This document shows, in pieces, positions 39,715 to 39,886 of a DNA stretch of 64,000 nucleotides. Source of the DNA: Stylophora pistillata (taxonomy: Eukaryota); NCBI RefSeq assembly GCF_002571385.2, contig NW_019217817.1, positions 691,572 through 755,571 of the forward strand. Direction: 5' to 3'. Made by a program: the position numbers and the translations under genes. The notes under the pieces were generated by a model. The model did no database searches. It was not told the origin of the DNA and saw only the letters and a list, made by a program, of their open reading frames with translations. Position 1 is the stretch's first letter. Each line of letters starts with the position of its first letter.

Positions 39715-39886
39715 GAATTTTTTTCAGGTCTGATTTTCACTATTGCTTAAATAGTGCTTTACTGCGAAGGATCGTGCACATATACGTTTCATAACCGCAG
39801 TTCATATATATGTATTTCATATGTTTGTTGTTTGATTTATCATCTACGGGTTTATGTCGAATTAATTTGATGGCCTGCTCCCAGTT

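Follow-up and report, generated by a model that had tools for sequence, protein, structure and literature searches.

The 245-bp repeat and its genomic setting

The window, by which we mean the whole 64,000-nucleotide stretch of Stylophora pistillata DNA analyzed here, carries an insertion made of two inverted arms of a 245-bp unit, 5.7 units on the minus strand and 3.3 on the plus strand, nearly all of which are identical (Table 1). The unit consists of a 73-nt tRNA-like part and 172 further bases, and its hairpins are denoted H1 to H4. Two older, truncated relatives of the unit are located at 22.1-22.3 kb and 43.3 kb of the window, and some kilobases away from the array lie exons or genes with C2, PX and MFS domains. 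Assembly gaps are present at window positions 11156-11811, 14166-15084 and 16462-17082, so that array lengths here may be unreliable. In addition, the window contains perfect or near-perfect local duplications at 61100-61241 (73 bp) and 29866-29955 (47 bp), and three long open frames on the minus strand of a T-rich stretch (22906-24321, 30459-31622 and 33510-34718; 471, 387 and 402 aa) that have no Pfam match and are possibly large exons of one gene.

Table 1. Positions, in window coordinates, of the repeat insertions and of the parts of the unit
Feature	Position	Strand	Remark
Left target-site duplication, 11 bp	38041..38051	+	Identical 11-mer at 40280-40290
Left arm, 5.7 identical 245-bp units	38050..39444	-	Long end on the outside, at site B (unit position 119)
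Inversion junction	39445..39462	.	Contains 17 nt of H1 in inverted orientation
Right arm, 3.3 units with a single substitution	39463..40278	+	Short end on the outside, at site A (unit position 74)
Right target-site duplication, 11 bp	40280..40290	+	
tRNA-like domain	39642..39714	+	Thr-AGT according to ARAGORN; eight copies in the window
A box of the tRNA-like domain	39649-39660	+	
B box of the tRNA-like domain	39693-39703	+	
Self-complementary hexamer ACTAGT of the anticodon loop	39672..39677	+	
H1, 10-bp hairpin	39708..39732	+	Takes the acceptor 3' strand; T7 run 39718-39724 in the loop
H2, 7-bp hairpin with 5-nt loop	39738..39756	+	Strongly covarying helix
H3, 6-bp stem with no variation and a 29-nt loop	39761..39801	+	Site A about 20 nt into the loop (~39786-39788)
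H4, AU-rich hairpin	39806..39824	+	Folding only; site B ~9-15 nt past H4 (~39832-39833)
Leader, degenerate complement of T arm, variable arm and D arm	39845..39886	+	Rod-shaped closure of the monomer predicted
Second, older insertion, 251-bp subfamily	22039..22337	.	Arms inverted, at 22052-22324, with ends at sites A and B
13-bp duplication of the second insertion	22039-22051 and 22325-22337		One mismatch
Third copy, 5'-truncated H2-H4 fragment, 251-bp subfamily	43276..43401	+	Local duplication of H4

The unit, a coral repeat that is present in many copies and encodes no protein, has a tRNA-like domain aboard and is inserted as tandem arms arranged head to head. A core pattern built on the three copies in the window is matched exactly at 8,380 places in the genome and nowhere when reversed as a control, so the family comprises at least 8,380 core matches in the S. 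pistillata genome (assembly of 398 Mb, with gaps). The subfamilies have periods of 245, 247, 248 and 251 bp and form arrays of up to 17 units; the marker words of two of them have 420 and 433 exact matches each, and several subfamilies are young. A scan of metagenomes yielded at least 120 stretches, among them further subfamilies, including a distant family B, which has the tRNA part, the T-run hairpin and the complementary leader in common with the main family but lacks the H2/H3 sequence core. In family B (L166, L173, L198, L215, L216, L226 and L227) the downstream domain is a different one, a helix with a long loop inside which the truncations fall, and a change in the variable arm is matched by a compensating one in the leader. 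A scan of viral contigs gave 28 matches to the pattern; none of these fits the unit profile, and they are attributed to chance.

Conservation and covariation of the hairpins

An earlier note on this DNA had proposed a covarying RNA structure in the non-tRNA part of the unit. The H2 hairpin on which that proposal was centered, CACTATT-gctta-AATAGTG, is found exactly where it had been placed, at 39738-39756, and its variants with CGC in the stem are present at 22229 (gcata loop) and at 43284 (gctta loop; given as ~43283). The compensatory change is real, but the three loci amount to only one event because the 22-kb and 43-kb copies belong to one subfamily. In an alignment of 15 natural copies, drawn from this genome and from coral metagenome contigs, four of the seven H2 pairs vary on both sides, 98% of the H2 cells pair, and RNAalifold predicts both H2 and H3 unprompted. 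Given that alignment cells are not independent events, we used 12 subfamily consensuses and their tree, with a null model that re-deals the substitutions of each branch among the variable columns; family B and S3 were left out, the 3' strand of H3 in S9a was entered as missing, and one block of S8 was replaced. The larger sample bears out the covariation of H2, which shows 7 compensatory events, one G.U change and one break against a null mean of 0.37 compensatory events, with none of 2,000 replicates reaching 7, in a set where H2 was aligned on its loop and several consensuses were built from 3-9 decayed copies, which adds false breaks. In the same test H1 has no breaks (p 0.07) and H3 has one compensation, at a flanking pair (p 0.06). 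The six core pairs of H3 show zero variation in the 15-copy alignment, so that this stem is conserved rather than covarying. As had been noticed, ACTGCG (39761-39766) and CGCAGT (39796-39801) are kept; the spacer, however, does not simply drift, as it holds a fixed A-x-GATC word, which together with G, C and A of the H2 loop constitutes the fixed single-stranded words of the main family.

DNA hairpins can become perfect through template switching. The hairpins might accordingly be by-products, with the family being a decayed SINE turned satellite, its palindromes kept by template-switch repair of DNA and its leader an old tRNA fold-back. H2 and H4 are indeed simple near-palindromes, the inverted duplications at every insertion make a fold-back origin of the leader plausible, and SINE-derived satellites are described in PMC10702118. 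Against this stand the 276 dispersed copies, each compared with its nearest master, in which H2 has changed on one side in 141 cases and on both sides in 6 (the latter probably including unsampled subfamilies), compared to 2 one-sided and 7 two-sided changes in the masters (Fisher p 1.5e-7). Thus, the masters keep the pairing and the dispersed copies mostly break it, which points to selection in the active lineages and not to palindrome repair. Furthermore, the arrays are short, scattered and bounded by target duplications, and the position of their ends follows the stems. The by-product reading is largely refuted for H2, and for the structure as a whole we consider it highly improbable.

Conserved RNA structure is therefore supported strongly for H2, by conservation for H1 and H3, and by folding alone for H4. 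The sense (tRNA) strand folds better than its complement (circular z of -4.4 to -8.0 vs -2.1 to -4.5 in four subfamilies, in one of them marginally), and the ratio of G.U to A.C pairs is 15:3 in the masters and 49:33 in the copies (p 0.10); folding and pair polarity together favor a sense RNA but fall short of proof. One unit (L148:600-990), which sits just downstream of a Penelope-like element (PLE), has a 19-nt foreign insert in the H2 loop of one arm only.

The tRNA-like part and transcription

The A box, the B box and a run of six or seven T residues are kept in 15 of 15 consensuses. Both ARAGORN and Rfam (48.9 bits) call the domain a tRNA, which would be expected if the units were functional host tRNA-Thr genes or another structured RNA of the host. 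The T stem, however, is broken by two mismatches, which are present in the most active subfamilies (3 breaks and no compensations in the tree test), the anticodon loop is non-standard (C at position 32-33, with an A.C pair closing the anticodon stem), and the anticodon is AGT here vs GGT in most other subfamilies. Considering also that the units have the ends of a mobile element and that most copies are truncated, a host tRNA or host RNA is hardly credible. The cloverleaf helices taken together show 2.4 compensatory events compared to 0.24 expected (p 0.02). The hexamer of the anticodon loop (here and in L038 and the metagenome loci L149-L228) is palindromic in two forms, ACTAGT and, in most other subfamilies, ACCGGT, with the 4-nt core of the palindrome only in one family-B consensus; it is a possible dimer signal that amounts to one event.

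In isolation, the tRNA part forms its acceptor stem with P 0.98; within the monomer, the acceptor 3' strand is taken up by H1 instead (P 1.00), and the leader is predicted to pair with the T, variable and D arms. In a 325-nt read-through RNA, ViennaRNA does not restore the acceptor stem of the 3' copy (P 0.00). The long-range leader helices show 1 compensation and 11 pair-keeping changes, which is not significant (p 0.21; p 0.06 for breaks), and a separate p-value for the R1 helix is an artefact of the null. The predicted picture, with weak to moderate support, is of a tRNA part that alternates between a cloverleaf and a rod formed with the leader; the two folds exclude each other, and each has a measure of phylogenetic backing. 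An alternative fold of this kind had been suggested before and is indeed predicted, although its main partner words are not those originally named: TACGGG is present in the leader at 39845-39850, but the pairing of GGCCTG with CAGGCC is not conserved, other subfamilies having at this place GACC, which pairs with GGTC of the variable arm. The hairpin over the T7 run also exists and is longer than described, extending to 10 bp (39708-39717 with 39723-39732). The 3' arm of this hairpin is transcribed only after the T run, and for this reason the suggestion that it hides the run from Pol III is unlikely; given its sequence conservation, the run bears more resemblance to a terminator under selection.

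By analogy with Cassandra as described in PMC10886601, the tRNA part would conventionally be read as a Pol III promoter followed by a leaky terminator. A linear Pol III transcript predicts a pile-up of 5' ends at the tRNA +1 position, and such a transcript is disfavored because no pile-up is seen there: none of 40 long arms starts within 5 nt of this point, and of 83 arms 2 start at it. In three stranded coral RNA runs from one study, about 6,400-7,300 of 12.9 million reads per run (~0.05%) come from the repeat, about equally from both strands and with no sharp ends within it, so that no dedicated transcript is seen in these runs. The read pattern fits passive co-transcription, in libraries that are ill-suited to small circles and with tandem DNA hiding circle junctions in short reads.

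Insertion anatomy

Read in tRNA sense, the 3' ends of the insertions cluster at unit positions ~69-80 (site A) and 112-132 (site B), that is, ~48-50 nt apart and one per arm, and the 5' ends are scattered. The arms are arranged head to head in 34 cases and tail to tail in one. Among the 26 inverted pairs with clean flanks, 22 combine one A and one B end and the remaining 4 have one unclassified end, without a single A/A or B/B pair; 16 of the 26 are bounded by a target duplication of 11-14 bp, compared to duplications of 11 bp or more in 2 of 234 mismatched controls, both of which are one locus counted twice. The duplication of the window insertion itself is 11 bp long. Short-end truncations like those of the main family are found in family B as well.

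These traits are those of PLEs, for which PMC8557442 lists partial tandems, an inverted 5'-truncated arm and a 'tail' at one end as marks. Host PLEs make target duplications of 11-13 bp, similar to those of the unit, and an autonomous GIY-YIG PLE of the same genome (L369) has a short end, a long end and an 11-bp duplication alike, as have two more families. In vitro, a PLE protein, predicted to be a dimer, nicks and extends both target strands from two internal starts beside a stem-loop, and hammerhead cleavage is dispensable (PMC11167929).

The two arms of one insertion usually share variants, being far closer to each other than to other insertions and identical over the core in 8 of 16 cases, although some of the 16 duplications compared are internal matches. 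In 7 of 24 multi-unit arms, from loci partly picked for this trait, two unit types interleave, one of which forms pure arrays elsewhere. Such mixing could stem from switching between two RNAs, which might be paired by the palindromic anticodon loop, from gene conversion or from assembly error, and is a lead only. Mixed arrays with no clear period are found at L349 (G000:C57:529800-533800), L368 (C21:1276700-1278800), L350, L351, L357, L362 and L367. Rolling copying from a single monomer was approached twice through a variant that seemed private, and both times the variant proved to be that of an active subfamily (420 and 433 matches).

From fold to start site

Site A lies at a median of 19-21 nt past ACTGCG, inside the H3 loop, in six of seven subfamilies (the seventh is represented by n=4 and a reference with a longer loop), despite differences in the sequence of the loop. 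Past the 3' word of H4, site B follows at 13-15 nt in the four subfamilies in which it was measured cleanly, with the offsets of S1 and S2 left unused owing to an indel and a misplaced anchor. Given the fixed depth of site A in differing loops, it is likely that the fold positions a PLE reverse transcriptase; the simplest reading would have the enzyme dock on H2/H3 and find the start sites by measuring off from there. We accordingly propose, with a probability of roughly 0.6, that the H2-H3-H4 cluster serves a borrowed PLE reverse transcriptase/endonuclease as the signal for docking and for the start of synthesis. The earlier note had offered an RT-recognition element or an unrecognised ribozyme, and the former is the better of the two because insertion ends fall at fixed distances from H3 and H4.

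The proposed cycle would start from a tRNA-sense RNA folded as a branched rod. A PLE protein, probably as a dimer, would bind H2/H3 and nick both target strands 11-14 nt apart; one cDNA would begin in the H3 loop, at a depth of ~20 nt, the other immediately beyond H4, and both would run through several units before being joined head to head. The template might be circular, or it might be a linear RNA that is re-entered through template jumping. More tentatively, the tRNA part may serve as an internal Pol III promoter and the T run as a leaky terminator, so that transcripts would exceed the length of one unit, and the internal tRNA copies may be spared excision by their pairing with H1 and the leader.

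A second, bolder explanation assigns the structure mainly to RNA processing: the unit would switch between cloverleaf and rod, and host RNase P/Z, or a splicing-type nuclease and a ligase, would cut out and circularize the monomers, around which the PLE enzyme would roll, with the tRNA mimic replacing the hammerhead of retrozymes. The compensating cloverleaf helices, the acceptor stem that is formed in isolation and lost to H1 in the strongly self-paired monomer, the missing pile-up at +1 and a unit size like that of the coral retrozyme circles in PMC7229834 (220-245 nt) would all agree with it. The uncompensated T-stem mismatches of the most active subfamilies and the acceptor stem that is not regained in the 325-nt RNA do not, nor do the arms with two unit types, which are impossible from one circle, although these loci were partly selected for the trait and may reflect assembly error. 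On balance, we regard processing as the main role of the structure as unlikely. Also doubtful in our judgment is a ribozyme-free, retrozyme-like parasite whose switching tRNA mimic would be circularized by host tRNA enzymes and dimerized through its palindrome, and which would be copied by an RNA-swapping PLE RT dimer from two structure-set sites, resulting in mixed arrays.

A self-cleaving ribozyme of an undescribed class, cutting multimers to monomers, could account for the invariant stem and the fixed single-stranded words, and H2-H4 are placed where retrozymes hold the hammerhead. Yet the Rfam scan gave no significant family other than tRNA, with no ribozyme at E up to 10 in the window unit and none at E up to 1 in six relatives. 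No hammerhead core was present on either strand of 15 consensuses, in a scan that included the U3-A8 and G3-C8 variants, nor was a hammerhead half-core followed by GAAA. The sister family B does without the H2/H3 core, a non-systematic look at the predicted folds revealed no pseudoknot or junction core, and internal initiation by a PLE enzyme can explain the fixed ends without cleavage. The ribozyme proposal is thus left without support; a new ribozyme is not needed to explain the unit, and we consider one very unlikely.

The search for a partner PLE

If the enzyme is borrowed as proposed above, an autonomous partner might share its 3' region with the unit. None of 50 GIY-YIG loci bears the unit as a terminal repeat, L148 merely having one inserted downstream; the PLE survey comprised 90 matches, from the 150 scored among 1,590 candidates. 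The tails of three host PLE families are ~92, ~90 and 21-25 nt long, and the ~48-50 nt of the unit fits none of them. Each of these families was rejected as a partner: L337 for its ~92-nt tail, with 7-10 nt as the longest word shared with its 3' region, L320 for its tail of 21-25 nt, and L322, which has an H3-like stem, a 29-nt loop and a similar depth of the short end, for its ~90-nt tail and its targeting of TA repeats. A protein search of the genome for further RT families produced no candidates and was uninformative. The young GIY-YIG families L337 (G000:C379), L338 (C28), L320 (C1108) and L322 (C184), with ORFs of 1,306, 1,825 and 1,354 aa, have minimal hammerhead-like cores downstream, and L322 and L338 are located at TA repeats.

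Relation to known elements

The animal non-LTR retrozymes, as described in PMC7229834 and bioRxiv 10.64898/2026.07.22.740005, resemble the unit in their non-coding coral tandem units of 220-250 bp that range from dimers to long arrays, target duplications of more than 4 bp, strongly self-paired monomers and proposed dependence on PLEs. The unit also falls within the 150-450 bp of tandem, non-coding, self-paired retrozyme monomers, but the type I hammerhead that characterizes each retrozyme unit is absent from both strands, a tRNA-like domain and a T run being present instead. On abundant circular monomer RNA, another retrozyme trait, the sparse reads of the unit from both strands say little. 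With PLEs and their non-autonomous forms such as MRC1 (as far as described in PMC8557442, PMC11167929 and PMC4209133) the unit shares partial tandems, the inverted 5'-truncated arm, the one-ended tail and two internal starts near stem-loops; unlike them it has no ORF, shares no sequence with any PLE terminal repeat examined and has a tail that fits none of the three host families measured.

The Schistosoma elements Sm-alpha and Sj-alpha (PMC2770079) likewise combine a high-copy tRNA-derived element with a structured RNA domain, but according to that source Sm-alpha bears a hammerhead, whereas a cluster of hairpins with no ribozyme forms the second domain of the unit. Cassandra, Helenus and Ajax (TRIMp3) are non-autonomous as well, with a Pol III promoter derived from a small RNA, a conserved terminator and repeat-to-repeat transcription, but they rely on LTR retrotransposons (PBS, PPT and 4-5-bp duplications), unlike the unit with its PLE-type ends (both as given in PMC10886601). 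Sharing a tRNA head with A and B boxes, tRNA-derived SINEs also have a 3' region that is presumably recognized by an RT (PMC10886601). The unit differs from these SINEs by the lack of a fixed 5' end at +1 and of a poly(A)/A-rich or simple-repeat tail, and by its circularly permuted, tandem and inverted insertions. The recognition of the 3' region of tRNA-derived SINEs is presumably by a borrowed RT, and the layout of Sm-alpha is tandem.

Altogether, the element is non-autonomous and of PLE type, a tRNA mimic stands in it where a hammerhead would be, and its RNA hairpin H2 is real and under selection; in layout it is retrozyme-like, but it is neither a non-LTR retrozyme nor an ordinary SINE. 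We found no description in the literature of a tRNA-bearing, hammerhead-free tandem element of PLE type, which Repbase or Dfam may list as a SINE or unknown repeat. The RNA feature recognized by PLE reverse transcriptases is barely known, one in vitro study having mapped two internal start sites, and the family offers a protein-free minimal substrate of 130 nt, a hairpin backed by covariation and hundreds of natural start sites, so that the rules of docking and start-site choice are directly testable on it. If the proposed reading is true, the family would be the PLE counterpart of SINEs and Cassandra-type elements. It also demonstrates that a hammerhead is not required for the spread of retrozyme-like arrays.

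Standard tools take thousands of these units, eight of them in the window alone, for tRNA genes. A paper on one coral genome lists 5,938 putative vs 674 high-confidence tRNAs (PMC13040556), an excess for which such a family could account.
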